Assembly (NCBI GenBank): GCA_964106915.2
Contig: OZ066914.1
Source: Podarcis gaigeae
Lineage: Eukaryota
DNA length: 64,000 bases
Direction: 5' to 3' (one strand)
Below, in pieces: positions 1,170 through 33,900 of the stretch (its first letter is position 1; each line of letters opens with the position of its first letter). The position numbers were made by a program, and so were the translations under genes. The notes below the pieces were generated by a model that saw only the letters and a program-made list of their open reading frames with translations, was not told the DNA's origin and did no database searches.

Positions 1170-4100
1170 CATATTAAATAAGCTTACTCCTGAAAAGTTT
1201 GACAAGCTATGCCTTGAGCTCCTCAATGTGGGTGTAGAGTCTAAGCTCATCCTAAAGGGGATCATACTGCTGGTAAGTGAATATACACTTATTAGAAAAG
1301 TTATGATTAAAAAAAGTAATTGTTCTACCATGTAATGCAGGTGTAACATGGGGGGGGGGGGACAAGCTTGAAAGTTACACATCTAGAACAGCTTTAGCAC
1401 TGTTCCTCGCTTGATCCAGATTGGATAGAGCCCCTTATCTAATGTCCATTAAAGGGGATAGCAGGAGGGCTCAAAACATCACAGACCTTTTTATCCAATC
1501 CAATTATGCTTCTGTTGTGAAATAAAGTTGTTCTAAAGAGGAACTACACCCCAAATTAAATTTCTACAAACAGCAACTTTGGGTCTGGTCAGTGGTTGTC
1601 TGAGCAACCACTGTGTTTATCTGTGCTTGCAACCTTTATTCACTTAGCAAGTAGTGTTGCATTTTCATGAACTGGTACAATGATCCTTGTGACCACTCAT
1701 AAAAGAGACTTAAGTAAACCAGATTAGTTTGTAATTTGACTTGCATAAACAGAAAATGGTTATAACCCTTTTATAACTATTTGAGATGAAATACTATTGT
1801 AAATAATTTTAGTTCTTGGGAACAAAAATTTTCAGGTTTTTATCATTGCATTATCTTACATCTTGAGGAACAATTCTTGCACTATATTGGAGCAATGAGT
1901 GTAGCTCCACAGCAATATCCCAACCTCTGCATCCAGTTCTATGACAACATTGGATGGAGGGGGAGGCAAGAGTATGGTTATCTGGTATCCCACAACTGTC
2001 CTCGCCAGTTGAGAAACAACAAAATAATTTGCCTAGTATGGGGCACTGCTAAGGCAGTCTGGCAACCAGTCAAATAAAAGCCAGCTCTTTGCTTCTCTTA
2101 CTCATTGTGGGATCCCAGAGTTAGGGTATCTATGGGTGTGTGCTACAGTCACATCAAAGTAAGCCTTGTGCCTCTGAATTTAGCGAATAGCCAATATGCT
2201 TGCATTGCACTGATTGCTAACATTGGGAGGGGATAGGGAAAGGGTGGTGTTGAACCTGCAGCTGTGCACTTAGCATGAAGCAACATGGGATCTGCTGCTG
2301 CTGAGTTATTTATACTCTGGTTCTTCCAAGTAATTTGGGAAAGCCTTTTTCTCTAGATCGTAGACAAAGCCCTTGAAGAGCCAAAATATAGCTCGCTATA
2401 TGCTCAACTATGTCTGCGACTGGCAGAAGATGCACCCAACTTTGATGGCCCATCAGCAGAGTGTCATCCAGGACAGAAGCAAAGCACAGTGAGTACAAAC
2501 GTCTGTCAGACTAATGCCAATGTGAGAATTAGTTTTGTGTAACTACAAGGTGTTAAATTACTGTCTTTTTATTTCTAGACATTCAGACGCCTCTTAATTT
2601 CTAAACTTCAGGATGAATTTGAAAACCGCACCAGAAATGTTGATAGTAAGACTTCAAAATAATTTTAATGTAATTCCTGTTTTGCTTCATATGTTATGCA
2701 AACAGAACAACATCTCTTATCTCTCTCTTTTTTAAAGTCTATGATAAGCATGATGCCCCCCTCCTCCCCGAGGAGGAGGAACAGAGAGCCATTGCTAAGA
2801 TCAAGATGCTGGGAAACATCAAATTCATTGGAGAACTTGGCAAGCTTGATCTTATTCATGAATCTATCCTTCATAAGTGCATCAAAACAGTAAGTGGTGC
2901 TTTTTCTTCATTTAGGCAGAAAATTCTAATTATATGTGGAAGAATAACTGGCAACGTATTACATTGATATTTAGTTTAGTGAGATTTTATGTGACATGTA
3001 CTGAAATGGTAACAAAANNNNNNNNNNNNNNNNNNNNNNNNNNNNNNNNNNNNNNNNNNNNNNNNNNNNNNNNNNNNNNNNNNNNNNNNNNNNNNNNNNN
3101 NNNNNNNNNNNNNNNNNNNNNNNNNNNNNNNNNNNNNNNNNNNNNNNNNNNNNNNNNNNNNCTAGACCATGCAAAAGCCAAGGTAAGCATTGCCTAAATT
3201 GCGTAGGTTTGTTGCTGTCTTGTAGTTTTTATGTTTATGCTCTTAGGAAACAGTATAATGGTTTTGTTTGCTGTATTTTATTTATGGCAGCTTATTATTT
3301 TATACAGAAGTGTTGCTACGTCAGTCTGGAGTAGACATTGATGAACTTGCACTGTAAAACGTTCAGTAGTAAATAACTACTTTACAGCAGGACTGTTAAC
3401 TAGGAAAAATTAAAGGCCAGAACCAAGACATTTCCTCTGGTCTTATTTAGACTTGTACGTAGAATGTTCTGGTTCCAATCTCTGTATAAATTTTAAAGAA
3501 GCTTGCTTCTGATGATGTATGTTGTAAGCTGATGATGATGTATGTTGAATACACATTGCAAATTTCTCTCAACAGTCCTTAATGGATCAGTACTTTGCCC
3601 GTATGCGCTCCTTGATGATGAGTAAGGAATTGCCGGCAAGGATTCGTTTCCTGCTGCAGGTAAGAGCGTAAAATTGTTTATTTTGGCAGGTTATGTATTT
3701 TTGGCATATATCCTTGAACTTACTTTTCTGTTTCTTTATTATTTAAGGATACTGTGGAGTTGAGAGAACACCGTTGGGTTCCTCGCAAAGCTTTTCTTGA
3801 CAATGGACCAAAGACTATCAATCAAATCCGTCAAGATGCAGTGAAAGTACGTATTTATCTAGGCAATGCTGTACTTAGGTATATGGCTCAACAGACATGC
3901 TGCTGTCTGGTTGAGGAACCCTGCTGAATAGGATGAGCTGTGGTATTGGGAACGGGACGGTGGGGGGTATTACCTGAAAATCAGATGAAAACTGATTCCA
4001 TGGGCAGAGCTCACGCTCTAGTTGTCCCCACTCAGCTACTGGGAATCAGCTGTGCCATGTCACCCCATTCAGCTGGGGTTACTTGACCTTTGGGGTGGTG

Positions 4101-7100: not shown

Positions 7101-9925
7101 AGCAAGCATTTTTCTCTTTCAGGAAACTGTTGTAACTGAATATCTGAACAATGGAAATGCCAACGATGCAGTCAATGGTGTGAGAGAAATGAGGGCGCCA
7201 AAACACTTTATCCCTGAGATGCTAAGCAAAGTAATACTTCAATCATTGGATCGATCAGATGAAGATAAAGAAAAAGCAAGTGCTCTGATCAATTTACTTA
7301 AGCAGGAAGGGATAGCCACTAGTGACAACTTCATGCAGGTACTATATTTGTAATAATTTTGAGCTCTTTTGTGGTCTCATTATATATATTGTGTTTTTTA
7401 ATCATTTTATTAAGCATCTTTCCCCCATTCATATACGTGATCCGTGTCTTAAAACTGAGTGGGATGTCTTATTTTAGTTAAGGGGTATCCATGGATAGGT
7501 TGTTCTGTCCACTGCTCACTCTACTGGGCAGGCTGATGCAGATTATGATACGTCCCTCTTCATAGCGGGATGGACAGCCCATCTCCTTGAGTACTTCCAG
7601 TCCAGATCTGCTGCTCTGTGCTCTCTCAAGGATATTATTCTCTTGTGGACTGCGTAATGGGCAGAGCCATAAACAAAAGTCCTTCCAGTTCCAAAAAAAA
7701 GGTGACATAAAAAGATTGGATCAGGAACAACCCTTTAACCTCAGGTCCTGGGGGAAAGTGCAGCCCTGTAGGCCTCAGCCTGGCCTTTGGGGCTCTTCTC
7801 CAGAAACACCACCTTCCCAAGTGGCCCTATTCTATACCTGGCTGAATTGTGTCCTTAAATTATAATAGTTCTAGATTGGCTCAATGGAGGTGTACAGAAA
7901 CCTGAGTTTTGTGTAGCTATACAAAAATTACATCCATAGCCCTGCCTGCTTTTTTTTCTTTTGGCAAAATGGCATTTGGCTCCCAATGTGAATAAAGGTT
8001 CCCCCCCCCCCCCCAGTTTTAAATGGCTTGGAAACTAGTAGGAAGGAAGGAACTTGGAGGTGGAAGCATGTAGCAGGCTCTGGATGCCCACTTGAATATT
8101 TGAGATCTCTAGACTTGTTCTTTGTTTACATTGTTTGACTGCCCTAATGTGTGGACATGTAATAAAAAGATAATGAATGCAAACAAATGTTTCTTTTTTT
8201 CTTTCAGGCATTCCTAAATGTATTGGACCAGTGTCCTAAACTGGAGGTAGACATCCCTCTGGTAAAATCCTATCTAGCACAGTTTGCAGCCCGTGCCATA
8301 ATCTCAGAACTAGTGAGCATCTCAGAACTAGCTCAACCATTGGAAAGTGGCACCCATTTCCCCCTCTTCTTGCTTTGCCTTCAGCAGTTAGCTAAGCTAC
8401 AGGACCGTGAATGGCTAACAGAACTCTTCCAACAGAGCAAAGTCAATATGCAGAAGATGCTGCCTGGTAAGGGAACAAAATGTTGTTTCATTTATTTTTA
8501 TTTTTCTAAGACTGTAACTGGGCCTAATACATAAAAAGTTGGGAAATAACACATTAAAGACTTAACTCTTCAAATTGTGAACAAAAGCAGGGATGGCCAC
8601 AACATTGGGTTAGGTGACAAGCCTGAATGTTAATTTGGATTTTTTTTTTCATAATTTGTTACAGAGATTGACCAGAATAAGGATCGTATGCTGGAGATCT
8701 TGGAAGGGAAAGGACTTAGCTTCTTGTTTCCACTTCTAAAACTGGAAAAGGAGCTCTTAAAGCAAATAAAGTTGGATCCATCCCCTCAAGCGATCTATAA
8801 ATGGATTAAAGACAACATTTCACCGAAACTTCATGTAGATAAGGGATTTGTTAATATTTTGATGACCAGGTAAGATGCACATCTTAAAGCAGTTCTGTAC
8901 CATGAATGTCCTTGCTTTAAGTAGGTGTGCTTTATAATATGTGGGGTTAATATTGGGGTTCACAAATCTCTTAAATTCATAATTTATATCAAGGAGTCCT
9001 TGCTAGTCTTTCGAAATATAGTGCATGTCTTCTTGCAGGGACAGTGGTTGTCTATAAACAGTTGAGTCAAACGTATGCTATTGTTTCAGTTTCTTGCAGT
9101 ATATTTCTAGTGAAGTAAACCCACCTAATGATGAACCAGATTCTTCATCTGCTCCTTCTAAAGAGCAGTTGGAGCAAGAAAAACAGCTGCTTCTTTCCTT
9201 TAAGCCGGTAATGCAGAAGTTCCTTCATGACCATGTTGATCTACAAGTGAGTGCCCTGTATGCGCTCCAAGTGCACTGCTACAACAACAATTTCCCAAAA
9301 GGTATGGATTCAATCTTCTGTTTCTCCATGCAGGAGAAAGCACTTGAGCCTCATCTTGTTATGTGAGGGTTTGGGGAGAATTCTAGCAAACGTGTGCACT
9401 GCAATCTGCACTAGTGGTGTTTTTTAATAATAATAATAATAATAATTGCGCTTGATTTGTTTTTAGGCATGTTATTGCGCTTCTTTGTTCATTTCTATGA
9501 TATGGAAATCATTGAAGAAGAAGCTTTTCTGGCATGGAAAGAAGACATTACTCAAGAGTTTCCAGGGAAGGGCAAAGCTTTGTTCCAGGTAAACCATCTC
9601 TTTGTAATCTCTTTAATTTGCTGCTACGACAAGTTCTATAGTTGGAATTTATTTGAAGTATTTGAACCCTGTAAAGTTGGCAAACGAGGGCTTTGGAATC
9701 TGCCTTGCCAACAAATTCAAAATTTTGATTTATATAAAGTTAAAAGGATTAAATTTACTTTTCTTTGATTTGTAGTATGTGGTGATTTAATAATGTGCAG
9801 GGCCAGTCTCCATGAATATGTGATAAACCATTTGTCATTCTTGACTGTTAATGTTATAACGGCCTAATTACAGGTAAACCAGTGGCTGACCTGGCTGGAA
9901 ACTGCTGAGGAAGAAGAATCTGAGG
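1170..9925 (+). CDS. EIF4G2: Eukaryotic translation initiation factor 4 gamma 2 (DAP5/p97/NAT1); 5'-partial multi-exon CDS with the stop codon hidden in an N run
   Basis: GT-AG exons: 1170-1272 (ILNKLTPEKFDKLCLELL), 2357-2488, 2579-2645, 2738-2889 (KMLGNIKFIGELGK), N run-3182, 3576-3659, 3748-3846, 4259-4400, 4499-4659, 5205-5318, 5763-5888, 6818-6922, 7123-7338, 8208-8466, 8665-8869, 9090-9301, 9467-9588, 9874-N run (VNQWLTWLETAEEEESE). MIF4G, MA3 and W2 domain peptides are recognisable as EIF4G2. Confidence 0.98.
3018..3161. other. N run covering most of an EIF4G2 coding exon
   Basis: 144 N; the exon tail LDHAKAK followed by a GT donor emerges at 3162-3182. Confidence 0.95.
5359..5541 (+). 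ncRNA. SNORD97: Box C/D snoRNA SNORD97 (U97) in an EIF4G2 intron
   Basis: Terminal stem TGCCC...GGGCA; 5' end CCCGATGATTATAAAAAGACGCGTTATT; 3' end AGATTATGAGATATGAGGGCA; central pyrimidine tract. Matches my recollection of SNORD97, whose host gene is EIF4G2. AGATTATGAGA is complementary to the elongator tRNA-Met anticodon loop (TCTCATAATCT). Confidence 0.93.
5960..6065 (+). mobile_element. Degraded L2-like LINE 3' fragment
   Basis: TGGAATGCT...AAAACGTTCCTGTTCATGCAGGCATTT resembles the end of L2 ORF2; short and decayed. Confidence 0.45.
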
Positions 9926-11890: not shown

Positions 11891-14562
11891 GCTGATGGGA
11901 TAAACACAACTTTGCTACTGATTGCTCCGGGCAAAAGTCTCCACTTGTGTTTCTAATAAATGTGTATCCACAATCCTCTTAAATCCCCTATAGAGCAGCA
12001 GAAGCTGGCCAGTATATTAGCAATGCACTCCTTCAGTATATGTGTTTTTGTTCATATTTTAAAACAGGTTTTTGTAACAACCATTAGCTATGTGTTTATT
12101 TCTGTTCACACAAGCTTCTGGTGGGCATGGAGTTTCCTACTAGAGCCCAGCAGGTCAATTTGCTTTTGTAGGAGAAAGCTACCTTCCACCTTGCAGACCA
12201 AAGTGGAAGCAGCTGGCAACCTTGCAAAATCTGATGGGGATTTATAACACACAACTAGGGCTATTCTGCATTACCCATAGATCTGTACATTTGCAATCAG
12301 CTGTCTGCAAAAATAAAAACTAGAATGACATAAAAGGACAGTGTGCAGATCCGCACCCAGGACACCCTCTTGCTCCATTTTCATGGCAATGGAAGCTGTA
12401 AGAACCTATCACCCACCAACATACGGTAACCTTTGTGGAATGGTGCCTAGTACCTGGGATGGAAGCAATTCCCTTTAAAAGCCACTGAACAGAAATTTAG
12501 GGTTGATTCTGTTTTCAGCAGAGGTTCCTAGAGGGCACCGGGCACCTTTGGAGTAGGGCAGAGCAGTACCTCTGCAGGGAGCGTAAGATTCTATACCCAC
12601 AATCTTACTACGTGCTTTCCTACCCAATGCTGCAGGGTACTGCTTGGAAAAGGTATTCACGGGCACCCAAGAATTGGTTTTTAAAAACTCGGGATGAGAA
12701 AATTGCCTTTAACACTTTGATCATTGTCAGTCTCAGATCAGTATTGACGCATAGATTGCTGCTGGATTTCATCTTCATAGTCTTTGCTGGAAAACCTCTC
12801 TAGCAAAGATAAGTTCTACCAAATGGCAGCAGCATTGATGTCATCAGCAAGCTCGGGATACTCAGTGATAATATAAAGCCAAAATTCAGTTGACAGCACT
12901 TCCAAAATTTAATTATCTCTGAGGGTCCTAATGCACAACAATTCAATGCAGTTATTTTTTTTACAGAAAAAGAAACCTTGTGAAAATAATTGCAAATGGG
13001 TTTCACACACATACCAACTTCTATTTATTCAGCAGAAAAGTGGACAAATTTTACATGTAGTGAATCTATGTGGCTCATGATGATTTGTTTAATGTTACTT
13101 TTAATCTCATCTGCTTTATCTTCAAGTGAAACAAATTTCGTCAAGCATGGAAACTTACCCATTGTGACCTGCCAAACTCAAACTCTATTTTTCCCATGAA
13201 AGCTTAGACTTTGCCTACACATGTAAATATGTTTTTATCTCTATCTTGTACGTTTAAATTCAACTTATTCTGATTACCAAACATGCCAGTTTGGTATCCA
13301 TCTGAATTGGCCAAATTATTTGCAAGTCCAGACCTTTTGTTTGAAAGAAATCCATTTACCTCTTGTCTTAACTCAGGCTCCCTGTAGCATATAACCCCTT
13401 AAACACCAACAAACATCTGTGTGATGTAATAGGTGTAGATATTCATAACTCATCTCCTAGCGTAAGATTTCTAACGTGTTGAATGACCTGGCTTTGATAA
13501 AGGCAACAATTTTCACTGAATTGCTAGTACTTCATGAAGCATTAACCTAGCTCTTTTGCTGCCAATGAATGGTTCATGTTGTAGGAAGCAGTGATAAGCT
13601 ACATTTTTAACTTGCTGTACTGAGCAATTGTTTATATTGCCACTGCTTAAGAGTACTGAAAAGTACTTGGAGCCATGCATCTGTGACTACCTTTTATTGT
13701 GTGCACTTTGCTCCAGACATAGTGTTTGTGCATAGGTTGTCTTTCCTGCTTGAGAACCACTACTTAGCTTCAAATCAAATTGGCACCTTTTTGTGTTACT
13801 GCTTCCCATAGCCACCTTTCTTAATAGGTATGTGAAGCCTTCATGTTCATTTCCTCCAGAGGAGGTTGCTGTCCTATCTTAACTAATTCAGGTACTTTTC
13901 ATGTAACTGAAGAGATAATAGCTTCAGCATTTCTGTAGCATTTCTACTCTACTGTGAAAACTCAAGCACTGACCTGACATTTGAAGGCTAAAGTTTTTTT
14001 AATGCTCTTTAAAAAACAATATCCCTAGGGGATATGTTAAATCTAACCGTTTAACTCCCTGATTTCCATCAGAGCCATTGTACAGAGAGAGGTGGTTTAA
14101 TTCTTCCTACCCCCTACAAACCTAATTGGGGCAGGGCAGGAAATCCTCCTGTAATTACCAAAAGGTAAAAAGCTCCCCTGGGAGCCGATTGGAGCTTCCA
14201 TCTCAATTACCAACTAGAGTTGGGTGGTGCTCTCTGTCAAGGATTTGTCCAAGAGACAAACGTTGCACATGGATGAGTGGCTGGCAACTTACACTGCTGT
14301 CTTTCAGGTCAGGATATTCCCCATCTTGCCTGCTGACAAATGCAGACTGCTACATGGGATGTTTGTTTATATTTATTAACTTCCAATATGCAGAGGCCAC
14401 ATTTCCCCATGGGTGGTTACAAAGCAGCTTACGGAACTATCAATAAAACATTGCTATCAAATAACACAGAGTTTGAAGCAAAACGAAAAACAGTAACAGG
14501 TAAAGAGCACAAGTTCCATAAACAGGCATAATGCAACCTACTTAAAATGCCTGCTAGAATAA

Positions 14563-14880
14563 AAAGGTAAAGGGATCCCTGACCATTAGGTCCAGTCGTG
14601 ACCAACTCGGGTTGCGGCGCTCATCTCACTTTATTGGCCGAGGGAGCCGGCGTATAGCTTCCGGGTACAGCATGGCCAGCATGACTAAGCTGCTTCTGGC
14701 GAACCAGAGCAGCACACGGAAACACCATTTATCTTCCCGCCGGAGCGGTACCTATTTATCTACTTGCACTTTGACGTGCTTTCAACGGGAGTTCACCCCG
14801 TCACAGGGATTTGAACCGCCGACCTTCTGATCGGGAAGTCATAGGCTCTTTGGTTTAACCCACAGCGCCACCCACGTCCC
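14563..14880 (-). mobile_element. Sauria-type SINE with internal deletion
   Basis: Reverse complement of the 745-1095 family; AAAGGTAAAG tail, head ends CCCACGTCCC. Confidence 0.88.
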
Positions 14881-15998
14881 TTAGCCCACTAGAATAGGAA
14901 GGTATTTATCCAGTGCCTGCAATTCAACAGGGAGGGGCCCCATCAGATCTCACCTGGAAGGGAGTAGAAGAAAAGGATCCCTTTTCCACACAATAGTATC
15001 TAACTTTAGCTAGCCTTGTGCTGGGACTTGACAACAATTGTGTTGGGCTCCCCCACCCCCTTTGGGCCAAGTCACAGTGCTGTCAGGTAACTTGTTTTTC
15101 TTTGCTATCTGAAATCAAACCATATTGGCAAAGGCACAGTGCTTTGCAAGCACTCATGATCAGATGGCCCATTTGCTTACTTTTAATAATGGACAGATTA
15201 GTTCTATGGACTGGCCCTTATTAACAGATAGATGTGTATAAGTGGGCCATTATGGGACATGCATACTGCTGCACCAATCCAAAGCCACAAACTATGATAG
15301 ACAACTGCTGTTGGATGCACTTTGTTCATGTTTCACAGGTAAATATGCAGACACAACTGTTTGGGGTTGAAGAACCATCAATCTTGCTGAATTGAAAAGA
15401 TCTTGCATTCTCTTTAGCAAATGTACATTCACTTTCATTTAGTGGTACACTTTGAAGTGCTGGAGTTCATTATGACAGATCCCACAGCATCAACCTTGAG
15501 GAGTGAAAAAATGCAGGCACTTCCACACATGCACAAACACAAACCAAAGAACAGTAGTACATTTAACAGCCAATTGGTTATAATCAGCATGCCTACAATC
15601 CTGGGAATAATATCCATTGCTTGTAGTAGTGCTGCACAGATTCAATTTTGCATGCACATTGCATCTTAACAAAATATGTTCAGGCAACTGGAATGTAACT
15701 TTTAATTAGATGTGCAAGGCAAGTGTTTTAATTTAGAATGCTGGTAAGTAGGAAACCTATTTTTTAAAAAGAAAGTTTTGCCTAACCTCTGCTGGATTAA
15801 GTTTCTCGTTCTCTGGCTTCATCTATGACAAACTATCACAAACAAAAGTCTCATCATCACCTCATTCACTTGCCAGTACAAGGAAGTTCTTCAATTAATC
15901 TTGAACTCCAGCAAAAACATTGTGGCTCCTACTCAAGGTACTGGAACTGCCTAAACCACCATCCCCCCTCATTGGTTATATTTTTATTTCTTCTCCAA

Positions 15999-18900: not shown

Positions 18901-21900
18901 AGCCTGATCTCCCATGAATTTGCCTCATGCCTTTCTAAAATCATAAACATAAGTCAGTGACCATCAAGACTAGCTTTAGATGGTCATCTTGTGACATTGT
19001 TCTATACATATGTGCTGTGTGAAATGTGTTTCCTTTCCTCTGTCCTGAATTTTCCAACATTCAGCTTCATTGCTTCATTGGATTGCCCTAAGTATTATGA
19101 AATGGAGGTGGGGCACAACAATTTTCTCTGTACCAGGAATATTTTTTAAAAATGCTTTTTTCACTGAGCCACTTTTTTTGTTAAACTGAAAAGCCCCAAA
19201 TATGGTAACCCTGGAGAGAAAACGCTCCAGATTCCTAATAATTTTGGTTGCCCTTTTCTGCATCTTTTCTAGTCCTACAATTTCTCCCCCTCCATTATTT
19301 TTTTAAAAAGATGGAGCAGCCAGAATTGTACATAATATTATTGTAGCACCCTTACACAAACACTCTCCAACAGTATCTGTACATTGAGGCCCAGGGCAAT
19401 CAGTCCAGGACAATAGGCAGCAACATTTTATTTACTTATTTATACTTTTGTGATTAGGAAAGTGATGGGAAAACACATAGAAAAGTGTGCAATGAGCTCA
19501 TGATTATAGGTAAGTGTCAGGTCTGCCTCTAGATCCCAGCTCACAGAGGACCAACGCCCGGTGGATATAATGTACAAAAGTCTTTATTGAAGTTTAGTTT
19601 CCATTTCAAAGCTCTGGGCGCGCAGACCCACGTCTTGACGCTAGACCGGCTAAGTCCCCTCTGACTCACTGCTCCACCTACACCAGTTTAAGATTCTAGC
19701 CCGGCTCCACCTCCTACGCTGTTCTTTCCTTCGCTGGGTCCTTCTGCCCTCTGGGGTTTCCTCCTTCCTGGACTCCTCTGACGCTGAGCCTCCTGAGTCT
19801 TGCCCCTCCCTCCGGCGGGCTTTAGGACCTGGCTCCCTTCCCTTCCCGGGCTCCCCGCTGTGCCGCGCTCCTGTACATTTGAACTTGGCGCGCGCGCCCA
19901 GCCGGTGACTTTCCTTCTGACCGTTTCCCCGCTTCCTGATGTGGGCGTTGCCAAACCTGACTCCTCTCCTCCCTCTGGTGGTGAGGACACTGGTCCCGAC
20001 TCCTGGGACTCCCCCTCCCCACTGCGCTCTGGTGGAGAAGCTGGTCCTGATTTCCAACTGCTGCTCAGGGACTCCCCGCTGGCCCCTTCCTCCTGGGGCT
20101 TCCCCCCTGGAACCCCCCTCACTCTGGCCACCGGCGCTCCCTTCTGTGAGTCCTCCGATTCGCTAGAGAGGCTTGTGGAATAACTCTGGCCACTGTCACT
20201 GCCTGCGCCCCCCTCGTACTCCTCCTCCTCACTCTCCATTTGCTCCCCCTCCTGTGTCTCTCCTTCTGAACCCCTGACATCCATCCCCCCTCGAAGCCCC
20301 CCCTTCCCCCCTCCCCCTCTTCAGGTGCGGGTTCCGGGTGCTCTAGAGTTGTCGGGGTGAGTTCAGGATACAGTTCGTCCCCCGAGGCGTGCAGCCAGCG
20401 TGATAAGTCCGGAAAGTCCTCCATGGGCTCGTCGACTGCGATTCCCTCCGCTTCCATCTCCTGGGCGGTGTGTTCGAAATCTGAGGCCGCCCCCAAATCA
20501 CTCAAAACCCCTTCTCCCCCTGTCGCCTGAGGTGACGCCACTTCCCAGGGTCCCTCCGACATGTCTCTGCGCCATCCCACTTCGGGTTGGTCCTCCCACC
20601 AATAAGATCCCCCCGTGCCAAAACCTGAGAGCGAGCCCTCTGGGGAGCTGCCTCCCGGAGCCGAGTCCTCCGCTGACGAGAAACCCCGGAAAGTGCTGGC
20701 CGATAGTGTGGGTGTGAACAGACAATCATCGAAAAAGCCCGCCGGCATAGGCTTGTGCGGGAAAAGTGTATGGAATTCTTCCTTGAGCAACTGCTCCTCC
20801 AATGCGTAATCCCGCACCCACCTGTTGGCGCTGGCCGGGGTGTCCTCTGTGGCGAGAAGATATTCAATCCCGTCCTCCCCCCACCTTGAGTCTAAAATCT
20901 CTGTGGCTTCATTAAGCGTCCCCGCTCTCGGCGACCCTCCTTTTCTGGGTGCTTCCCTGAGCGGGTCTGGTGCTGTCCCTGGTGCCTGAAACCTGTGGGG
21001 CCCTTTGTAGGGTGTGAGCACTGATCTATGAAAGACCGGGTGCATTCTGGACCCCTCCGGGAGTGTTAACCGGAAGGCCACTGGGTTGATCTGCGCCTCT
21101 ACTTGGTAAGGCCCTAGCTGCTTGTGCCCTAGCTTCTTCTTGGCCAACGATCTGGCCGGAACTGCCTGGGCTGCTAACCAGACCCAGTCTCCTACCCGGA
21201 TGTCTTCCCCAACCCTCCTGTGTCGGTCTGCCTGCACTTTGTAAGCCTGTTTCGCCATCTCTAACTGCCTCCTGAGCTGCTCGTGGATCTCCTGCAACTC
21301 CGCTGCCACGGCCTCTGCTCCCTGCGGCTCCCCCTCCCTCACTTTCTCCAAACCCGGGAAGGTTCTGGGATGCCGCCCATTGTTGGCGAAAAACGGTGTC
21401 ACCCCCGTGGACCCGTGCTTCGTGTTGTTGTAGGCAAACTCGGCCAACGGTAGATAGTCCACCCAGGTCGAGGGCTGCTGGTTCGCGTAGCATCTCAGGT
21501 ACTGCTGCATGATGGCGTTGACTCTCTCCGCCTGTCCGTTAGTCTGCGGGTGTCGCGCCGACGCCAGGCTGACCTTGACGTTCAGGAAACCCATCAGCTT
21601 TTGCCAGAAGTTGGATATGAACTGGCGCCCCCTGTCGGACAGGATGGACCGTGGTAGGCCGTGCACCTTGAACACGTGTTCTATAAACAGCTTGGCGGTC
21701 TGCTCGGCTGTGGCCACCTTCGCGCAAGGAATGAAGTGGGTCATCTTGGTGAACAAGTCTACTACCACGAGTACTGCCGTCTTGCCTCTCGAGCTGGGCA
21801 GATCCGTGACAAAGTCCAGGGCCACCCTCTCCCACGGTTCGAACGGTGCCTGTAGCGGTTCCAACAGGCCCGCCGGCGGCTGGTGTACTGGTTTGGCCCT

Positions 21901-24900
21901 TTGGCAGGTGTCGCACCTATTGACGTATTCCGCGACATCCCCCCTCATCTTGGGCCACCAAAGGTCTCTGGCTACTAGGTCCACCGTCTTCTCCTTGCCA
22001 AAGTGTCCCGCGCTGGGCGCGTCGTGCAGCTGTTGCAGGACCCTCGCGCGGAGGTTGTCTCCCGGCACGTAGAGGGCTCCTTTGCGGATGAGCAGGCCGT
22101 CGCGTATTTGGAAGTCGTCGTCCCTCGCCGTGCCGCTACGCACCTCCTCCATCTTGGATCGCGCGAATAAGTCCGTCTGCAGCGCGCGACGCACCACGTC
22201 CAGGTCCACCGTGGCTGACGCGCATGCCCACGCCTTTGGTGCGAAAATATGCTTGGCCGCCGCCGGCGCCTCTTCTTCGAGATACTGCGGTTTCCTGGAC
22301 AGCGCGTCCGCCATGATGTTGTTGTTTCCAGGGATGTATTCTATTCTGAAGTCGAAATCTGCAAATAACTCCGCCCAGCGGATGTGTCTCTGGTTCAGGA
22401 ACCTCGCCGTGCGCCAGTACTCCAAGTTCTTATGGTCTGTACGGACCTGCACCGTGTGTTTGGCCCCGACGAGGAAATGCCACCACGCCTTGAAGGCTGC
22501 ATGTATGGCCAGTAACTCCCTGTCCCAGATGGTGTAGTTCTGCTCCGACTTGCTGAGTTTCCTGGAGTAGAAAGCGCACGGCCTCCAGTCCCCCTGGTGG
22601 TCTTGCTGCAACAGGACAGCCCCCACGGCCCTGTCTGACGCGTCCGTCTCCACTCTCATGGGCCTGCTGGGGTTCACGTGTAGCAGGTGTTCCTCGGACA
22701 CGAAGAGGTGCTTGAGCTTCTGAAAGGACTGCTCTGCCTGCTCCGTCCAGATCAACTTCTTCTTCTTGGAACTGAGGGTGTCAGTGATGGCCGCTGTCTG
22801 CATGGCGAAACCTTTGATGAACTTGCGATAAAAGTTGGCAAAGCCGACAAACCTCTGGACTTCCTTTCGATTGCGTGGGCTCTTCCAGTCCAGCACTGCA
22901 CGTACTTTGGTACTGTCCATGGCGAGTCCCTTGTCGGACAGTTTGTAGCCCAGGAAGTCCACCTCCGTCTTGTCGAACTGGCACTTCTCCAGCTTGGCGT
23001 AAAGCCGGTGCTCCCGCAGCCGCTGCAGGACTTCCCTGACATCTCTCTCGTGAGCCTCCGGCGACTCTGAGAAGATGAGGATGTCGTCCAGGAAGCAGAC
23101 GCACTTCTTGTAGAGAAGACCCGCCAAGACATGATGCATGAATGCTTGAAAACAGTGGGAGCCATTTTGTAATCCAAAAGGCATAACTCTATATTCATAG
23201 GTGCCCAGCGGCGTAAACATGGCCGTTTTCCACTCGTCACCTTCCCGCACGCGAATGAGATTGTACGCTCCGCGCAGATCCAACTTGGTAAAAATGCGGC
23301 CCTTCCGCACCGTCGCCAGCAGGTCATCGATCTTGGGCATAGGGAAGGCTGAGGGCTTGGTTTTCGAATTTAAGACGCGGAAGTCCACGACCAGCCTCTT
23401 CCCGCTTCTTTACAAAGAATACAGGGCTGCCCCCCACCGCCTTGGACTCTCGGATGAATCTCCGCTTCAAGTTGTGATCTATGAACTCCCTGAGCTCCTG
23501 CAATTCATCCTCAGACATGGAATACAGTTTCCCCGTCGGGAGCGTCGCCCCCGGCAGGAGGTCAATCTTGCAGTCGTAGGGTCTGTGGGGAGGCAGCTTG
23601 TCCGCTTCTTTCTCGCAGAAGACCTCCAAAAACTCTTTGTACTTGTTAGGTACCGCTTGCAACATGCCCAAGTTCAGCTGTGGTCCATCCTCGTGCCCCT
23701 CATCTTCCAAGTCAGCCAGGATGCAGTGTTCTGCGCAGTAGGAGGAGCCGAAGGTCAGTTGCCGCTGGTACCAAGCTAATGCTGGGCTGTGCCTATCCAG
23801 CCAACTCATTCCCAACACTATGGGCGTGTCTGACAGGCGGGTGACGTTGAAGCTGATGACTTCGCGGTGATTACCAATGCGCATCACCATTGGCGGCGTC
23901 TGCTGTAGCACTTGCCCTCCCAGTAGCTCCCTGCCGTCCACCGTGACGACGTTCAGAGGTACCGTCGCTGGCAGAAGGGCTATGCCATGTTGCTGGATGA
24001 ACTCCATGCCTATAAAATCTGCATTGCTCCCAGAGTCAATGGTAATGGGGATTTCCACAGTGAGCCCATTGGGAAGGTGAAGGGATGCGGTGAGCTGCAC
24101 TACTGGTGTGGGTAGGAGGGGGTCTGTGGGCTGTAACATTACTGGGGATTGCTTCACTGACTTGTCTGGCTGGCCCCCAGTGACTCCATTTCCAGCCAGA
24201 CAGTGGAGTTTTCCTGCTGTGATTCACTCTGCTGAACTGCTTCTGTTACTGTCGCTGCGGCTGCAGTGTGCTTGTGAAACCGCTGGGGACACTCTTTCGC
24301 CATGTGCTGAGCACTGTCGCAGATGTAGCACTTCCTGGTCCCTCTAGGAGGCTTCATTTTGACTGCTCCCGGCGTTAGGGCTCCGGCTGTGGACTGAGCC
24401 TTAGCACCACCTATCTCCATCGGCTCCTCTCCCCCTCCCAGCGGAGGCATGGATCGAGCGCGCGCCACTTCCTTGGGAAAGGGGGGCGGTCCTCTCGCTG
24501 TCGTGCGTCCCCAATGCCCTTCCTCCTTGTCCCAAGGGCGTCCTTCCAGCCTAACCCCAATCGTGAGTGCCCTCTCCACAACGTCTTTGGTGGTTTGGGG
24601 TCTCTCTCCCCTTGCAATTTCGTCTTTCACAGCTCCGTTCAGCCCCTCCCAGAACAGGTCTCTGACGGCAGACGATTCTCTCTCCCAGCTCAGTACATTC
24701 ACCAATGCAAAAAGGCGTGAATGATATTGCCTTACAGTGGCTCTGCCTTGTCTTAGTCCGTGAATCTCTCTCCTAGCGATATCCACATCAATCTCAGACA
24801 AAAAACACGCATCCATCACTTTAAGGAAGGCAACCGCATTTTGGAGGGCTGGATCCTTATCTCTCCAGAGATTGCGCAGCCAGGATTTAGCCTCTCCCCG

Positions 24901-27900
24901 CAAATGCGATACTATAAATCCCACTTTCTCTTCCTCTCTTCTAAAGTCGTTCTCCAGTAGTTGCAGTGCATATACTACATCTGCTCTGAAGTTAGGATAC
25001 TGCTGCAGGTTCCCATCGAAATGCGACACAAGGCTCCCTCCTCTGTTCCCCAGCCCAATCCCCTCTGGTCTGGCGGCCGGTAGCCCTTGTGCAGTCAGCA
25101 CTTCTAACCTGGTTCGCAGATCCTGGCAGGTAGCAGCTGCTTCCTGTTCCTTCTTTCTGGACGCCAAAATCTCTGCGTTCAGCTGCGTCACGGCGTTTTG
25201 CAAACTTGCTACCTTCTCTTCGGTAGTCATCTTTCAGGTATTCGTGAGCTCGCGAAGTACCAATCTTCACCCCTCACTGCTTTCCCGCACGTCACGAGGT
25301 GATAAAATTGGTGGAGTCGGAGAGAGGGGACTTACTGTCAGGTCTGCCTCTAGATCCCAGCTCACAGAGGACCAACGCCCGGTGGATATAATGTACAAAA
25401 GTCTTTATTGAAGTTTAGTTTCCATTTCAAAGCTCTGGGCGCGCAGACCCACGTCTTGACGCTAGACCAGCTAAGTCCCCTCTGACTCACTGCTCCACCC
25501 ACACCAGTTTAAGATTCTAGCCCGGCTCCACCTCCTACGCTGTTCTTTCCTTCGCTGGGTCCTTCTGCCCTCTGGGGTTTCCTCCTTCCTGGACTCCTCT
25601 GACGCTGAGCCTCCTGAGTCTTGCCCCTCCCCCCGGTGGGCTTTAGGACCTGGCTCCCTTCCCGGGCTCCCCGCTGTGCCGCGCTCCTGTACATTTGAAC
25701 TTGGCGCGCGCGCCCAGCCGGTAACTTTCCTTCTGACCGTTTCCCCGCTTCCTGATGTGGGCGTTGCCAAACCTGACTCCTCTCCTCCCTCTGGTGGTGA
25801 GGACACTGGTCCCGACTCCTGGGACTCCCCCTCCCCACTGCGCTCTGGTGGAGAAGCTGGTCCTGATTTCCAACTGCTGCTCAGGGACTCCCCGCTGGCC
25901 CCTTCCTCCTGGGGCTTCCCCCCTGGAACCCCCCTCACTCTGGCCACCGGCGCTCCCTTCTGTGAGTCCTCCGATTCGCTAGAGAGGCTTGTGGAATAAC
26001 TCTGGCCACTGTCACTGCCTGCGCCCCCCTCGTACTCCTCCTCCTCACTCTCCATTTGCTCCCCCTCCTGTGTCTCTCCTTCTGAACCCCTGACAGTAAG
26101 ACATAAGCAAGCAAGGATAAATGTTCACTGTCGTATAAACTCCCCACAAACAAATCCGAATGAATGTTCAGTAAAGACTGGATGTAATCCAACATATTCA
26201 TTAAACGCTGTGCAAACTAATCTGGATGCTTAGTAAATAGGTCGCCTGGAAGAGCCCAGAGATTCTCTCACACTGATGGCAATGAACTTGGCCAAAGAAG
26301 AGGGTGAGCACTTGCCAGTCAAGGCACAACACAAAGTTGTCTCACAGACAGCTCACAGAGGAATTTGCTCATCTCTCAGCAGCTGCTCACAGATCCTCCT
26401 CCTCTACACTCTCTTTGTTCTTTCCACTTCTCTCTCACATTACTGCTACTTCATTTTTTTATCAATTTCTCCTTCAAAGATCTGTAACTACAAAGTTCAA
26501 ACTAAAAGCCCACAACAGTTGACTAGCTTGGATTTCAAGGATTCCTAATGGATTATTTTAGGAGAAAAATGATTAAAGGAGCAAAAAGCTCTTTGAAGAG
26601 CTGAACTCTTATGTGTCTTGATTTTCCTGGGCATGAAATTTTGCTCCCATTTTTATTTTCACAGAGGAGCCAATTTTCTGTTACCTAGTAGGGAGAGGAA
26701 GGATGGAAAGAGGTAGACAGTTAGTGTTGTCAGAGGATACATGAAAAGCAGAAGTAATGAGATGTGCCTTTCCATCAGTTTATTTCCTGTCTTGAATATG
26801 CCAGTAAACATATTAATTTATTACCTGTCAGATCCTCTGCACAGATAGCTCACTGTGAAGTTGGAGGTTAGGAGATGTCAGAGACTATAAAAGCCCTACC
26901 TGTCAGTGCTCTTGGCCTTTTCTTCATTGTCAACACCAGGGACTGAAAAACAAACTTGCTCTCCTTCCTGAAACATAGGCAAAAAACAAGAAATAAGAGC
27001 TGCTTTATAAATAAAGGATTGCTTCCACTTCATAGCAATTACTTAAGGTCTTGTTGACATGGCTGAAACCAGTGTGGGGCTGATTCAGAGGGATTACATT
27101 GAAAATGTGAGTTTTACCACCTCCTTAAAAAAAGAAAGTACTCCTGAATTAACAGCGACCTGTGCTTATGCAGTTATTTCAAAGGTTGTCTCCCCACCCG
27201 CAAGGTTCTTTGGATGGTATTTTACTCCCCACTTCCTGGTGAGTTTTTACAAATAGAACAATTCTGGAAGGAAGTCTTGAAAGATATATCTCAGATTACA
27301 GGTCATACCCTGGTCTTAGCCTTACTTATTCTATATACTTCAGATATGGACCAGTTAAGAAGTAAGGAATTGATAAAACGTTTATTAACAGCAGCTAGAA
27401 TGGTCACAACCAGAACCTGAAAAACATTGCAAACAGTCACAATGGGAAAGTTGTTGCAAAAACTGAAGGTGGCAAGGAGACAGAAAAAACAAGATAATTT
27501 TTACATTGTATGGTATGATTTTATTAAATATATAAATGAAACAACACATAGACAAGGAATACCGTAGAAATGGTGTAGATATTATGTATTATGAAATAAG
27601 ATGTATGTATTTACCTCCCTAGTGACCCATTTGTTAGTCTTGTCATGTTTTATTATTTATGTTTGCACAAAGAAATTATGATAATTGTTTTGTGAATGCT
27701 TTGTTACTGATTTTGTAACAGAAAATCAATTTTAAAAAAGGGAAAACTAGTGAGAGTGCACCTCACAAACTGGTTATGGGTCCCTCATGATTTAAAGGAA
27801 TAATTTTGAATTGGCTGATGGGCTGCCCCTGCTATAGACAATATATTATGACCATTGGCCATGTGGCTGGGGCTGATGGGAAATTAAAGGCACCATTGGG

Positions 27901-30900
27901 GCTACCTAGATATAAAAGCAGGGGTTTCAGTCAGGAATCTTTCCGACCTCTATGTAGAGGTATTGCAGATAGAAGTTGTGATATTTGCTCTACCACTGAG
28001 CTACAAGTAGCCCTTCCTCACATGGAGCCTTCATATGGAAGAGGAAGAAACAAAGCTACTAGGGGCCATTTTGTGTGAGCTAGGCATGTCAAATCAGCTG
28101 GAGAGATCAATCTCATTTTTAATATTGATTAAAACAGGGGGAGCTCTGGCTTATTTACAATTCTGACAGAGAGGCATATAATTTAATTCTGCTAATTATC
28201 AAATATAAGAAAATAGATCATTCTCAAAGTATCTCACAGGTTAATCAGATCACTGATATCTACATAATTGCCTCATACCCATCTTGTGTTGTTTTTCTGA
28301 GCGAATCCCACGTTAGCACACCCTTCCCCTAACCTTTAATGTTTTTAAAGAATGTAATAGTTAAGCAAGAATAGTTGGTGGTTGCAAGTTGCTGTTGGAT
28401 ACCTAAAAATACCTCCTAGAAGGAGTGCCCTGTGCATGTAAATCAAAAGCTCTTTTGTCTAGTTGCAATTCCATGACAATAAGCTTGTCACAATAGAACA
28501 GGAGGCTGCCAAGAGACAAATAATTAGAGCCCTCTCTCAGGAATTTAAAAATATGATTAAAGTGAACCCTACATGCACCATTTCATTTAAAAATTCCAAA
28601 TGTTATAAATTACCCAATTTCTAACTCCTGTCAGTTTATTTTTGAGTTTTACATGCTGAGCAAATTAATCAGTCAGATTGCCAAAGCTAATTCAGTTATG
28701 ACAGCATGCGCGGGCATATTTGGTAAATTTATTCACATCTTGGCTGCCTCTTTCAAAAATGGGTTGAATCCCACAGCAGAAGATAAACAGATCTTTCCTC
28801 CGACGGTAGGAGGTAGGCATGAATGCTACCCACACAAAATGATTTGCCTGTTTTATTCCATTTCTAGACTCACATGATACAAAGCTATTCCATCCACTGA
28901 ATAAAAAGGTTCAGTGCAAAACACTTCTAGTATTTTGGCATGTCAAGTAAGGAGCATATCCTTCAATTGTCTGCATTAAATTTAGCTATTGGCCAAACAT
29001 CTTCCAATACTAAGGGGCTAAGTGACATGTAGTTACATATTGTTGCTAAATTCTCCATGTGTGCCTCTCTGCCAGGCAGAGTGAGAAAGTCTTGGGTTTC
29101 TAATTTAGGAACTATTGCTTCTTGTTATGTACTACCAGTAACTATAGAGATACATAGAGCCTTGTCCATTTCGCCACTAAGACCAGATGCTGAAATTAGA
29201 AACAACACTTTGCTTTTTATTTCATTTTTTGTCCTTTATGTGTGTTAAATAATAAAACTAAATGTCACACTAAATGCCTTGGACTGTTACACCAGGGCTC
29301 CATTTATGTTCTCATAACGCTCTGTACTAATAAGTAAAACTTCTGAGTTCAGTGGGGCTTCCTCACAAGAAAGTACATACAGAAATGGAACATTAATGCC
29401 TAAAATCTAAGGAAGTTGTCCTGCGCCAAAGAATAATCCACTTCTCTCTAGGAGGGGAAGAAAAAGCAAATCCACAATTCCAGTTTATCACAGTTTATCA
29501 CAATTTAATAAATTTTGGCCCAAGCTCAAGGTTCTCTTTGTTACTTGTGTGCATATGGCACATTACTTTGTCTTTAAAAAAAAAAAGTGAAATTGATCTA
29601 TAATTAAGTATATTAATTTGCTGTTTTGTGGAGCATCCCAAGAGGCAGGTGCAGTGGTGATACACCAAGGTTTTTTGGGTTTTTTTACAAAGCATTTTGA
29701 AAGGAAAAGTTGAAGATGAATGACTGTTAGCTTGATACTTAACAGGCTGTTATTTCCACTAGTCCAATATACTACCACCCGAAATTCATATTTGAAACAT
29801 GCTTATTCTTGCACATTTGCTTAGTTCATTTATATAAAAAAGAAAAACTAGTCCTGAGCTGTAATCCTGAGCTCTTTGTAGCACTGTTTCATTCTGTACA
29901 AGTTTACATGGGGCCATTTCCATCTTGTGACATATGGAACACAGTACTGGTGTTTTCCCCTCTGATCTCAATGGAAGTAAATTCCAAGTTGTTTACTGTT
30001 GGTTTTTGTTCTAAGGTGCTTTCAAAGCTCTTCTCTTCCCTTAGCATACATGTGTTTGGTAAGTTAAAAATAGTTTACTTACAAACTCTTCAAAGGTCAG
30101 ATTTATGTGTTTTTCCATACAGCAATAAGAAAACACGGGCAGCAAAACTTAGGTTCCATAGTGGTGAATGTTTCTAAATTATTTGTATAGAAACACAACT
30201 ACAGCTTGCATAAGCCATGTAGTCAGAGCTTGGAGCAACTGGTTCAGATCTCTTTGCTTGCCAGAGTTCACATGGTGGTATGAAAGAGCAAGGAGTTTTA
30301 TAATCTTTCCTTGCAAGGTGAGGGAGAGTGACCCAGCTAAGCCTGGCAGGACATTTTACTCTATGGTCTTAACCCCTTCATGCATTAATTATAGGAGCCT
30401 GCTTATCCCACACTTACCGCAAATCTCTGTGGAGTTCCATCTTCATTTCTTAATACTGTTATGTGCTCATTGCTTTCATTGATACACAAGAAATAGTTCT
30501 TTATTTTCACCTGACACTAAGAAGAGAAGGGAAGAAGAAATGCTGACGCAAAGTTTAACTTCATTTGGGGCTGCTTATTCAGAAATACAATGGGGGGGGG
30601 GAGTTTTAGACTACCAGGAAGACACAAAAGACATCCTGCATCTCAATTACTTATTTGTTTTCCTTCAGAAATGTCGTAGTGTGAATCCAGTGGATTTCCA
30701 CTTGTACAACAGGATATCACCATCTTCTCTGCACCACATACACCCCCAAAATCTGCTTAGGAGGGTCTCCCAAAGGTGCACGGGGGATGAAGGGAAGGAG
30801 GAGAGGAAGATGGCATCCCATTCCACTCAGATGCATACAGTGATGATTCCATAGCTAGGACTGACTGTTCAAGGAGAGGTCTGGAAACTGGAGAAGCTAG

Positions 30901-33900
30901 AGGCTGAAGTGCGTAAGCTTCAGCTCTGTTGACCAGGCAACAGTGAAATCAGAAGGCCAGGCTCTGGCAGTTAGCTATACCAGGGTTCTGCGATGTAAGC
31001 ACACACAAGGTCAAACAAGACGTGACTTTAAACACAGGATTAGAAAACACACTTATACAGGCTTTGTGTCTCTGCTAGCAAAAGAAAACCCTGCTGTTGA
31101 GGGCTCCCTCATTTTCGTCAAGGCTGTGATAGGGGTTAATCTGTTTCCTTGCATCACTTCCACTCCACCCCAGCTGCTATTTGCCAGAGGACAGAGGGGA
31201 AAGGGATAAACTCCCCTCATCCTGAGCCACAGTTTAAATTCAGGCTGGGGCTGTGCGGGGTCAGGACCTTGCAGTTGCTTTTTCTAGATAAAGAGCCAGT
31301 CCAAGTTCTTTTTTTGAACATATATTTAAGGTTGTGTCTTGCCCCCAGTAGCTCACTGGATCAGTTATCTCAAGCCATGAGGGCTTCCAGAACAAAGCCC
31401 AGAGTCATTGACAGAGCCATTCAGATTTCATAATGTATCAAAGTGGTACATACAGCTTTGTTTTGCCTTCTTGATTTTTCTTCCTCTTGGGATTGCCAGA
31501 GGTCTGCCATGGCACTATATTTCTTCATCCACATCTCACACTGTTTTTCCTTCTCTTCTATGTCCCGTTCTAGCAAGCGCTTCCCCCTTTCCGACTCGTA
31601 ATGAAGCAAGGTTGCTTTCTCTAAAGCTTCTTCAGCAGCTTCTGTTCTACATCTTTGAGAGATTTCACTGGAATAGGTGGAGGGGAAAATGTTTATTTAG
31701 GGGTATAGGCTTTCCCATCCTAAAGGCTTCAACTAGATAATGAAATGAAATGAATGAAATGAAATTGTGATAGCAGAATAATACTTCTTTGAATTCAATT
31801 AAATTTGTTTCTCAACTTAACTCTAAACTCCAGACTATTGTAAACAGGCAGATCAAATGACATTTCCAAAAGGTTTTCAGGCTTGGAGAATGTATGAATG
31901 TCACTGCTGAATGAACCTCATGGTGTTGTTAAGAAGCTGCTCTCAGCAGATTTTAAGAGATCCTAAAGGTAAAGGTAAAGGGACCCCTGGGTAAAGGGTC
32001 CAGTCGTGGCTGACTCTGGGGTTGCGGCTCTCATCTCGCTTTACTGGCCGAGGGAGCTGGCGTACAGCTTCCGGGTCATGTGGCCAGCATGACTAAGCCA
32101 CTTCTGGCGAACTAGAGCAGCGCACAGAAACGCTGTTTACCTTCCCGCTGGAGCGGTACCTATTTATATACTTACACTTTGATGTGCTTTCAAACTGCTA
32201 GCTTGGCAGGAGCAGGGACTGAGTAACGGGAGCTCACCCCGTCGCGGGGATTCGAACTGCCAACCTTCTGATCGGCAAGTTCTAGGCTCTGTGGCTTAAC
32301 CCACAGTGCCACCCGCATCCCTTTAAGAGATCATAGTGAGGCTTATATTTGGAGTGTTTAAACCAGGAGTGGGGAACTTGTGGCCTGTAGCAATTGGCAG
32401 AGTGTGGGAGGTTGGAGTGGTGTTGGTTACTTGGGTTCTCAATGCATAGATCACTGTTGGTAACTGACAGGGACTCTGACAAGGCCAGGATGGTGTGGGT
32501 GTAGCAGCTGAACCCAAACAAACATTGCACTGTGCAGACCTCCTCACTGCCTCCCTCTCCCTCTCTTGGTTACTGGAAGCAACCTCTGCATTGGGAAGTC
32601 AGGTAAGCAATACTGTCCCAATTCTCTACACCCCCACTGGCTGCTACTGCTTATGGCCCCTTCAGATGTTTTTGGACTACAACTCCCAATATCCCTGACC
32701 ATTGGCCATGATGGCTTGGGCTGATGGGAGTTGGACTTCAACAAGCACACACCCAGAGGGCTACAGGTGTGCCACCCTTGGTTTAAAGCTATATACTTTA
32801 CTATATTTATTCCAATTTTAAGACAACTAAGGATGATGGGGATGAATATTTCACAAAATGAGAGGTAGCATATGACACAGACCCTACAAAATGGGGTTTG
32901 GTATATAATTAAATGAATAAGCAAAATAAAAAATCATACACCATTGTTAAGATTGGGAACATCTCTGTGCAATAGACAAATATATCAGGAAAGGAGCAAC
33001 TGTTTTCTGGGATGGGAAAGTTGTGTCTAAATTAAAACCTTACCTTTCTTTACACTTCAAATTCTCTTCTAGTGTTCCTTTCAGTTTCTGCTTTAGTTCA
33101 TTCCTTTCATGCTCTAAATATCGTTTTTCCTCACAGATGACTTCCCTCTCCATTGTTATTCTCTCTAGTTTCATCTGACTTTCAAAGTGGCTCTTTTCCA
33201 CTTGTGCTAACAGCTGCTGCATTTCGGTTAACTGAAAGAAACAAATCAGAAAAACATGTTTTCCCCTCTCTAAGGCAGAAAGTTGCCGTGACAGCCAACC
33301 CGTAGAGGTTTTAACACCTATAAAAACAAAGGCAAAGAAAGAGTTTGAAGGAAGAAAAATAGCATGGAAGCCACTGCCTGAGGCGAATGATTCACATTGC
33401 TCCATGGGAAGTTTGGCCCTGTGCAGTATGAGATTTATTCTACTACATCGCTGTAGGCCAGTCTTTCTCAGCCTTGGGTCCCCAGATGTTGTTGGACTAC
33501 AACTCTCACCATTCCTAGCTAGCAGGACCAGTGATCAGGAATGATGCAAGCTGTAGCATAACATCATCTGGGGACCCAAGGCTGAGAAAGGATGACATAG
33601 GCAAAGGAGATATTTTGATAGGCTTGCTCTTATACATTGTACCATGACAGATATGGAATCCCGACAACTGGTAGTTAACTCCTCAGGGTACAAACTCATA
33701 CCTTTCTCTTCAGCTGCTGAGTTTCTTCTTTTAAGCTGATGTTCTCCAGCTGAACTGCTTCTTGCTGCTCCCGACACAGCTTTTCCTGGGCTTCAGCCTC
33801 CGCTTGGCCTTTCTCAGCTTCTGCCTGCGCCAGAGAGGCCTCCTCCACAAGCTTGGAGTATTTTGTCGCTGTCTGCTGAGAGGCATTCAGCTTCTGCTTC

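Follow-up and report, generated by a model that had tools for sequence, protein, structure and literature searches.

The element and its integrase tail

A stretch of 64,000 nucleotides from Podarcis gaigeae (assembly GCA_964106915.2, contig OZ066914.1), hereafter the window, contains a retrotransposon on the minus strand whose integrase ends in a chromodomain and a long tail carrying an FxGF motif, the type of motif by which a number of host proteins bind LEDGF and HRP2. Coordinates are window positions, and all features of the element are on the minus strand. Judged from its sequence, the element is a complete and young chromovirus of the Tf1/sushi type, a Ty3/Gypsy retrotransposon with long terminal repeats (LTRs). 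The gene order, gag followed by protease, reverse transcriptase (RT), RNase H and integrase, together with the TG..CA ends of the LTRs and the target-site duplication, is that of Ty3/Gypsy elements. Alignment of the LTRs placed the 5' copy at 25336..26095 (760 nt, with the terminal inverted repeat TGTCAGG..CCTGACA) and the 3' copy at 19515..20279 (765 nt); since the pair differs by 5 mismatches and one 5-nt indel across 760 aligned bases, the insertion is young. The 5-bp duplication CTTAC is found upstream at 26096..26100 and downstream at 19510..19514. The primer-binding site (25323..25334), identified by complementarity to the LTR, matches over 12 nt an LTR segment (25472..25483) that is a predicted self-primer near the likely transcript start, consistent with the self-priming arrangement reported for Tf1/Sushi chromoviruses in PMC6317226.

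The gag frame (24154..25233) encodes a CCHC zinc knuckle and matched Pfam PF03732, PF19259 and PF00098. Open frames and Pfam matches divide pol into a 5' part with protease and the start of RT (23324..24223) and a 3' part with RT, RNase H, integrase (H2C2, core and SH3), chromodomain and tail (20119..23409). The latter is uninterrupted over 1096 codons; the pol frame is interrupted in RT near 23400. The integrase SH3-like (Tf2-1) domain lies at 21007..21192 (PF24626, residues 739-800), and the polypurine tract (PPT) at 20280..20322 is translated within the Pol frame. The RT is 96% identical to P0002, a Podarcis protein, and among named proteins those closest to the element belong to Podarcis muralis and P. 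lilfordi. Scans of IMG/VR and JGI returned no relatives; none of the 24 and 88 pattern matches, respectively, was confirmed.

A set of 232 relatives was assembled by searching for homologs, by querying representatives of 50% clusters and by looking up clusters. The chromodomain end could be located in 219 of these proteins, and tails shorter than 30 aa were omitted from the tail counts. The closest set, family A, was used to interpret the tail of the window copy, which extends for 207 aa through the PPT into the 3' LTR, in agreement with the approximately 200 aa given in the first-pass annotation. The description of the tail as acidic and Ser-rich given there was borne out for the first 154 aa up to the LTR (20281..20742; D+E 21%, S+T 16%), predicted to be disordered where modelled (to 20521), and was not borne out for the last 53 aa inside the LTR, which are basic (K+R 32%) and which the frame comparison identifies as off-frame read-through. 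The window copy departs from the frame of its relatives within the purine run of the PPT, where a length variant at 20284 is present in contigs from all four sequencing runs compared. Among 34 family-A proteins followed past the PPT, 20 continue in the acidic U3 frame, 5 shift like the window copy and 9 end or shift earlier. Tails of full-length relatives are about 350-365 aa, reading across U3.

The U3 open frame of the 5' LTR (25474..26094) encodes 207 aa, acidic and Ser-rich with a basic end, that correspond to the C-terminal half of the tail in relatives; the C-termini of 20 Pol proteins of family A are 45-66% identical to it. A separate accessory gene in the LTR was considered and rejected, the 20 of 34 relatives mentioned above entering that frame from Pol. 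The U3 segments at 25474-26094 and 19650-20320 are protein-coding, as Pol of the relatives crosses the PPT and all of U3. The U3 frame of the 5' LTR terminates at the self-primer site, and Pol of the relatives ends, near a likely TATA box, with a basic stretch resembling a nuclear localization signal and the sequence [LI]L[SN]WC in family A or LLCW[KR] in family B.

The chromodomain and the motif behind it

The chromodomain (20743..20913) was assigned from predicted fold and alignment. The Pfam Chromo profile gave no match at E<=1 for this segment of the window copy; PF00385 is listed for family-B relatives. An AlphaFold2 model computed from a 68-row alignment adopted the chromodomain fold, with a predicted local distance difference test score (pLDDT) >90 across model residues 101-150. 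A Foldseek search with this model returned Ty3 integrase at the top and then the chromodomains of HP1, CDYL2 and CBX proteins, the last three at root-mean-square deviations of 1-2 Å with weak E-values of 0.02-0.1. The modelling indicates that the integrase carries a chromodomain at its C-terminus. The three aromatic cage residues that distinguish type I (methyl-lysine-reading) chromodomains are lacking in the window copy, in which the positions read N, T and T. Of the 141 outgroup chromodomains, 113 have a full cage; it was found in none of the 62 rows of the motif-bearing families A, B and C (0/34, 0/27 and 0/1), with family D (Zootoca) left out of the counts. In family A, positions 1 and 2 are gone from every row and position 3 from 31 of 34; every family-B row keeps position 2, and 10 of the 27 keep position 1. 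The family-A domain is otherwise conserved, 33 of 58 columns being invariant among 9 representatives less than 90% identical.

Directly behind the chromodomain is the sequence SASTFRGFSSAEDS (20703-20662), which contains FRGF at 20691-20680, so that the first-pass annotation was correct in placing this tetrapeptide behind a chromodomain with a degenerate cage. The motif is bipartite. A predicted short helix, AGFFDDC at model residues 154-160, ends in LF (20716..20742) and is followed by the 8-residue Ser/Thr-rich linker TPTLSAST (20692..20715), the FxGF core with Ser two residues ahead (20680..20691), and a CK2-like S-x-x-D/E site immediately after it (20665..20679). The helix has a pLDDT of about 77 in the AlphaFold2 model, and the linker and FxGF are predicted to be disordered, with a pLDDT of about 53. 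The regions around the motifs in the predicted models generally score about 45-55, as expected of a disordered region.

The caution in the first-pass annotation that four residues can arise by chance was justified for the bare tetrapeptide: composition-preserving shuffling yields it in 4-7% of tails, the six frames of the window hold it 20 times, and the RT of the element itself contains it once. The bipartite pattern is far rarer, with 1 match in the six frames of the window, 3 among the 112,885 Pol-body residues of the 219 proteins, and a shuffling frequency of 0.0016 for a pattern picked after the data were seen. When PDB sequences were searched with the motif, as a single sequence and as a profile, the matches were all unrelated, with E about 1-4. 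Motifs of the FFAT, LIR and clathrin-adaptor types were considered and set aside, the fixed F-x-G-F spacing appearing to fit them poorly.

Family A has FxGF in all but one of its 33 tails (29 distinct), with F, G and F fixed and R, Q or H as x; in the exception, P0050, the frame changes just ahead of the motif. The linker TPTLSAST is identical in 30 of the 32 proteins reaching the motif, and S/T-x-x-D/E directly follows FxGF in all 32 that bear it. Among the 9 representatives, the motif block has 14 invariant columns out of 18 and the remainder of the tail 25 out of 116. Of the contig variants (40 of 118 seen), all 4 within the motif block were synonymous, as were 10 of the 17 elsewhere in the tail, a small sample that points to constraint at the protein level. 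Downstream in the family-A tail (window 20581-20607 and beyond) are further conserved aromatic-acidic blocks, SYWW..PE..W.R and FEH..E, which may be the remnant of a second motif or another linear motif.

Families B (P0053, P0097 and P0202-P0232, mostly from P. muralis) and C (P0052) are 60-63% identical to the window copy in the integrase core and 47-53% in the chromodomain, and their pre-LTR tails gave no significant alignment with it (E 0.08-1.6). The pattern F-x(7-10)-FxGF is nevertheless found in all 26 usable family-B tails (23 distinct) and in the single family-C tail. Here V, E, W and L also occur as x, and the F-x-G-F spacing with its Gly is fixed in all three families. These results confirm the expectation of the first-pass annotation that FxGF would be conserved within variable sequence. 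Most family-B proteins have two motifs. In the first, which lies directly behind the chromodomain and in register with that of the window copy, the linker is acidic and the core begins with F, L or M; the second consists of W-x-x-[VM]-F, nine acidic or Ser/Thr residues and FxGF, with a helix predicted at low confidence for the W-x-x segment. Two motif sites occurred at most once in 20,000 shuffles. Family C has a motif of the second type only, 64 residues from the chromodomain. An Atlas search with a family-B tail returned only generic chromodomain clusters (0.82).

The bipartite form was found in 0 of 87 outgroup tails and bare FxGF in 1 of 87, many of these tails being short or chimeric gene predictions. 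The FxGF of P0082 stands in an unrelated context and was taken as chance. Other squamate chromoviruses, P0055 (Vipera) and P0057 (Rhineura), have acidic tails with a basic end and no FxGF. Four near-identical predicted proteins of Zootoca vivipara (P0069, P0199-P0201) are degenerate copies without a recognizable RT, in which the frame is still open, the chromodomain has decayed and the motif reads F-x8-LSGF; these are possibly a non-autonomous family retaining the tail.

In a tree of integrase-chromodomain segments of search matches (quick search, 78 rows, 270 columns, without named reference elements) the 13 motif-bearing rows form a single branch with a Shimodaira-Hasegawa-like approximate likelihood ratio support of 100, adjoining P0055 and P0067. 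The acidic tail may be older than the motif, P0055 adjoining the motif clade. Thus, the motif is present in three diverged families and absent in its bipartite form from the outgroup tails, and the loss of the cage falls on the same branch.

Possible roles of the motif

Motifs that bind TFIIS N-terminal domains (TNDs) have been described as an obligate helix, an acidic linker of 8-16 residues often rich in phosphorylated Ser/Thr, and then FxGF, the last being essential for binding to LEDGF and HRP2 and special to these two among TND ligands (PMC9987994). The bipartite class is held in ELM as LIG_LEDGF_IBM_1 (PMC10767929), and an interaction of the FxGF/LEDGF type is reported as conserved across animals (PMC6877644). 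The linkers found here, 8 residues in family A and 8-9 in B and C, are within the described length. The textbook anatomy is matched most closely by families B and C: both have an acidic linker, and the second B motif and the C motif have a hydrophobic i/i+4 pair like that of the MLL1 helix (PMC8022399), features absent from family A. One consensus for HRP2 and LEDGF ligands, S/E-x-F-x-G-F (PMC7337902), is found in the window copy and in 32 of 33 family-A tails. The sequence S-T-F-H-G-F-D of the DPF3a peptide given in the same paper recurs in three family-A proteins, and that peptide has LF ten residues ahead of FxGF; in DPF3a, HRP2 binding increases when the Ser two residues ahead is phosphorylated or changed to Asp/Glu and is lost with Ala (PMC7337902). 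Family A is best described as a Ser/Thr variant, the binding of which would depend on phosphorylation.

In the mechanism we propose, the tail would be a disordered arm on the integrase and the motif would dock on LEDGF or HRP2 at their integrase-binding domain, and the PWWP domain of these proteins would read H3K36me2/3, the marks reported in the literature to be bound by these readers; docking would bias integration toward transcribed chromatin. In family A, negative charge would be supplied by phosphorylation of the Ser/Thr linker. We judge binding to LEDGF/HRP2 probable, and we assign the whole chain, from docking to a bias of integration toward transcribed chromatin, a rough probability of 0.55. 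The broader proposal is that a vertebrate Ty3/Gypsy lineage independently captured the LEDGF/HRP2 tether of human immunodeficiency virus (HIV), in that an FxGF of the host type arose and was duplicated in a disordered tail across PPT and U3, and so switched from reading heterochromatin to a phosphorylation-tunable targeting of transcribed chromatin; we regard the odds on it as about even. The mechanism would apply to the family and not to the window copy as it stands, because this copy is broken in RT and frame-shifted at the PPT. The first-pass annotation had suggested that chromodomain targeting was replaced by mimicry of a host motif; the conservation of FxGF and the helix-linker-FxGF anatomy support this in part, and replacement is too strong a word for a chromodomain that is retained, conserved in 33 of 58 columns and predicted to fold.

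Several observations weigh against targeting through LEDGF/HRP2. The family-A linker is acidic at 0 of 8 positions and Ser/Thr at 5 of 8, and PMC9987994 calls an acidic linker obligate; the hydrophobic i/i+4 pair of the MLL1 helix is absent, with Asp in its place. The consensus S/E-x-F-x-G-F is found in just 9 of 26 family-B tails (19 of 26 allowing Thr or Asp), and a stricter one, D/E-x-E-x-F-x-G-F (PMC8022399), in none of the 33 tails of family A and 6 of the 26 of family B. A profile from seven motif copies retrieved no LEDGF complex from PDB sequences, the 1 match being unrelated (E 4). FxGF is not the sole constrained site in the family-A tail, the SYWW..PE..W and FEH blocks being conserved also. 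Motif gain and cage decay count as one event, not as independent instances, because both map to one branch, and plant chromoviruses and Ty3 have likewise lost the cage, with the domain put to other use (PMC6317226; bioRxiv 2021.07.27.453949). The variant counts cover only 40 of 118 contig variants, and the tree comes from a quick search only.

The same conservation and bipartite form would also serve a motif that binds LEDGF/HRP2 for a purpose other than site choice, such as holding integrase on chromatin or stabilizing it, keeping it in the nucleus, or bringing factors of elongation and chaperone function to the new insertion. In Drosophila, JIL-1 is stabilized by a contact between FxGF and the LEDGF domain (PMC6877644), and LEDGF and HRP2 are described as histone chaperones in elongation (PMC9987994). 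This explanation is judged unlikely, given that the motif immediately follows the chromodomain, which normally serves in targeting, and arises on the branch of cage decay, and that integrase C-terminal tails of murine leukemia virus (MLV) and Ty1 are reported to carry host tethers. Several TND proteins read related motifs (PMC9987994), and the departure of family A from the acidic-linker rule, together with L or M for the first F in many first motifs of family B, would suit another acidic-aromatic receptor, either a TND protein (TFIIS, elongin A, PNUTS, IWS1 or MED26) or a partner that has no TND, for example histone H2A-H2B. Such a receptor is doubtful in view of the fixed F-x-G-F spacing with its Gly in all three families and the specificity of FxGF for LEDGF/HRP2 among TND ligands already cited.

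A structural role, in which the block packs on its own chromodomain or integrase, or a role of the nucleic acid, in which it overlaps a cis-acting RNA or DNA signal, would account for a family-A linker conserved beyond the need of a flexible linker and for the helix, with its pLDDT of about 77, directly behind the chromodomain; moreover, the cage-less chromodomain of Ty3 has an extra helix folding back onto the domain (bioRxiv 2021.07.27.453949). Against these roles, the linker and FxGF are predicted to be disordered, the single copy in family C is of the second type and lies 64 residues away, and family B has both; the four motif-block variants seen were all synonymous, as expected of constraint on the protein. 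We consider these roles improbable. That a chance tetrapeptide was spread by recent amplification of a few master copies would be consistent with the frequency of bare FxGF in shuffled tails and in RT, and with many family rows being near-copies from one species. The comparison of sequences already largely refutes this possibility, which is very improbable when the motif and an upstream Phe at 8-9 residues are kept between families with unalignable tails, the motif is doubled in one family and the bipartite form is found in 0 of 87 outgroup tails.

The position of the element relative to genes bears on targeting to transcribed chromatin. Upstream on the same strand is a candidate multi-exon coiled-coil gene (26900-38850), with candidate exons near 38.4-38.8, 36.4-36.6, 33.7-33.9, 33.0-33.2, 31.4-31.7, 30.4-30.5 and 26.9 kb; scans of its pieces gave no telling Pfam match, and Atlas with an exon returned only generic coiled coils. 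The last candidate exon upstream (26967-26900) has an open donor. Of 689 splice acceptors scored with a rough ad hoc model, the best, at 16155 beyond the element, leads to a last exon of 51 residues with AATAAA at 15988 and would make the element intronic in sense orientation, and a weaker one at 26684, before the element, leads to an immediate stop with AATAAA at 26657 and would make it intergenic. The intronic position given in the first-pass annotation is plausible, and one insertion says little either way.

Farther out in the flanks are exons with an MA3 match (1170-9900, plus strand) and exons with a TPR match (44400-61800, minus strand), which by their translations resemble eIF4G2 and CTR9, respectively. 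A GC-rich tandem array with a 119-nt unit (some units 92 nt) and internal palindromes lies at 55661-57572 between the CTR9-like exons. Copies of a repeat of about 350 nt, 77-91% alike, are scattered at 743-1096, 14560-14882, 31964-32323, 35403-35746 and 41528-41888 and resemble Sauria short interspersed nuclear elements.

Comparison with known ligands and tethers

The element shares with Tf1/Sushi chromoviruses the Gag-Pol layout, the self-priming primer-binding site, and an SH3 domain and chromodomain ending the integrase. It differs in its family's tail of about 200-365 aa, the frame of which crosses the PPT and U3 and which bears FxGF motifs; of the outgroup chromoviruses compared, most retain the cage and are without the bipartite motif. 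The loss of the cage is shared with type II and Ty3 chromodomains. Partners of cage-less chromovirus chromodomains are described as unknown (PMC6317226), and the proposed targeting, if true, would suggest what takes over once the aromatic cage is lost.

With the motifs of MLL1, JPO2, PogZ, IWS1, ASK, DPF3a and JIL-1 the element has in common a predicted short helix ending in a hydrophobic residue and Phe, a linker of 8-9 residues, FxGF, acidic or phosphorylatable flanks and a predicted disordered setting, and the form S-x-F-x-G-F is that of DPF3a and ASK. Those ligands are host proteins, whereas here the putative ligand belongs to the integrase of an autonomous retrotransposon, and the Ser/Thr linker without acid in family A and the doubled motif in family B are unlike the host ligands. 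The nearest precedent we have seen in print for a transposon-linked FxGF ligand is PogZ, a host protein of transposase origin listed as a LEDGF partner (PMC8022399, PMC7337902). A mobile element with such a LEDGF-type FxGF motif was not found in the full-text literature searched, which takes in only a minority of subscription journals. If the motifs are ligands, the natural series of one, two and degenerate copies with acidic or Ser/Thr linkers would inform the grammar of FxGF motifs.

Tethering by an integrase tail is known from Ty5, in which the tail binds Sir4 under the control of phosphorylation. For MLV with BET proteins and Ty1 with AC40, a short motif at the integrase C-terminus is reported to recruit a host chromatin factor. 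All three differ from the present case in motif and in the partner, here a predicted one, and here the motif is combined with a retained, cage-less chromodomain.

LEDGF is, to our knowledge, a textbook integration tether for lentiviruses only, and HIV contacts it through the folded dimer of the integrase core, not through a linear FxGF motif. The host domain predicted here and the predicted outcome, integration in transcribed gene bodies, are the same as in lentiviral tethering by LEDGF/HRP2 (PMC9987994), and the HIV site on LEDGF overlaps that for FxGF (PMC8022399). The difference is that the contact predicted here is a host-like linear motif in the disordered tail of an unrelated Ty3/Gypsy integrase, which, if true, would be a second, convergent route by which a retrotransposon reaches the same reader.

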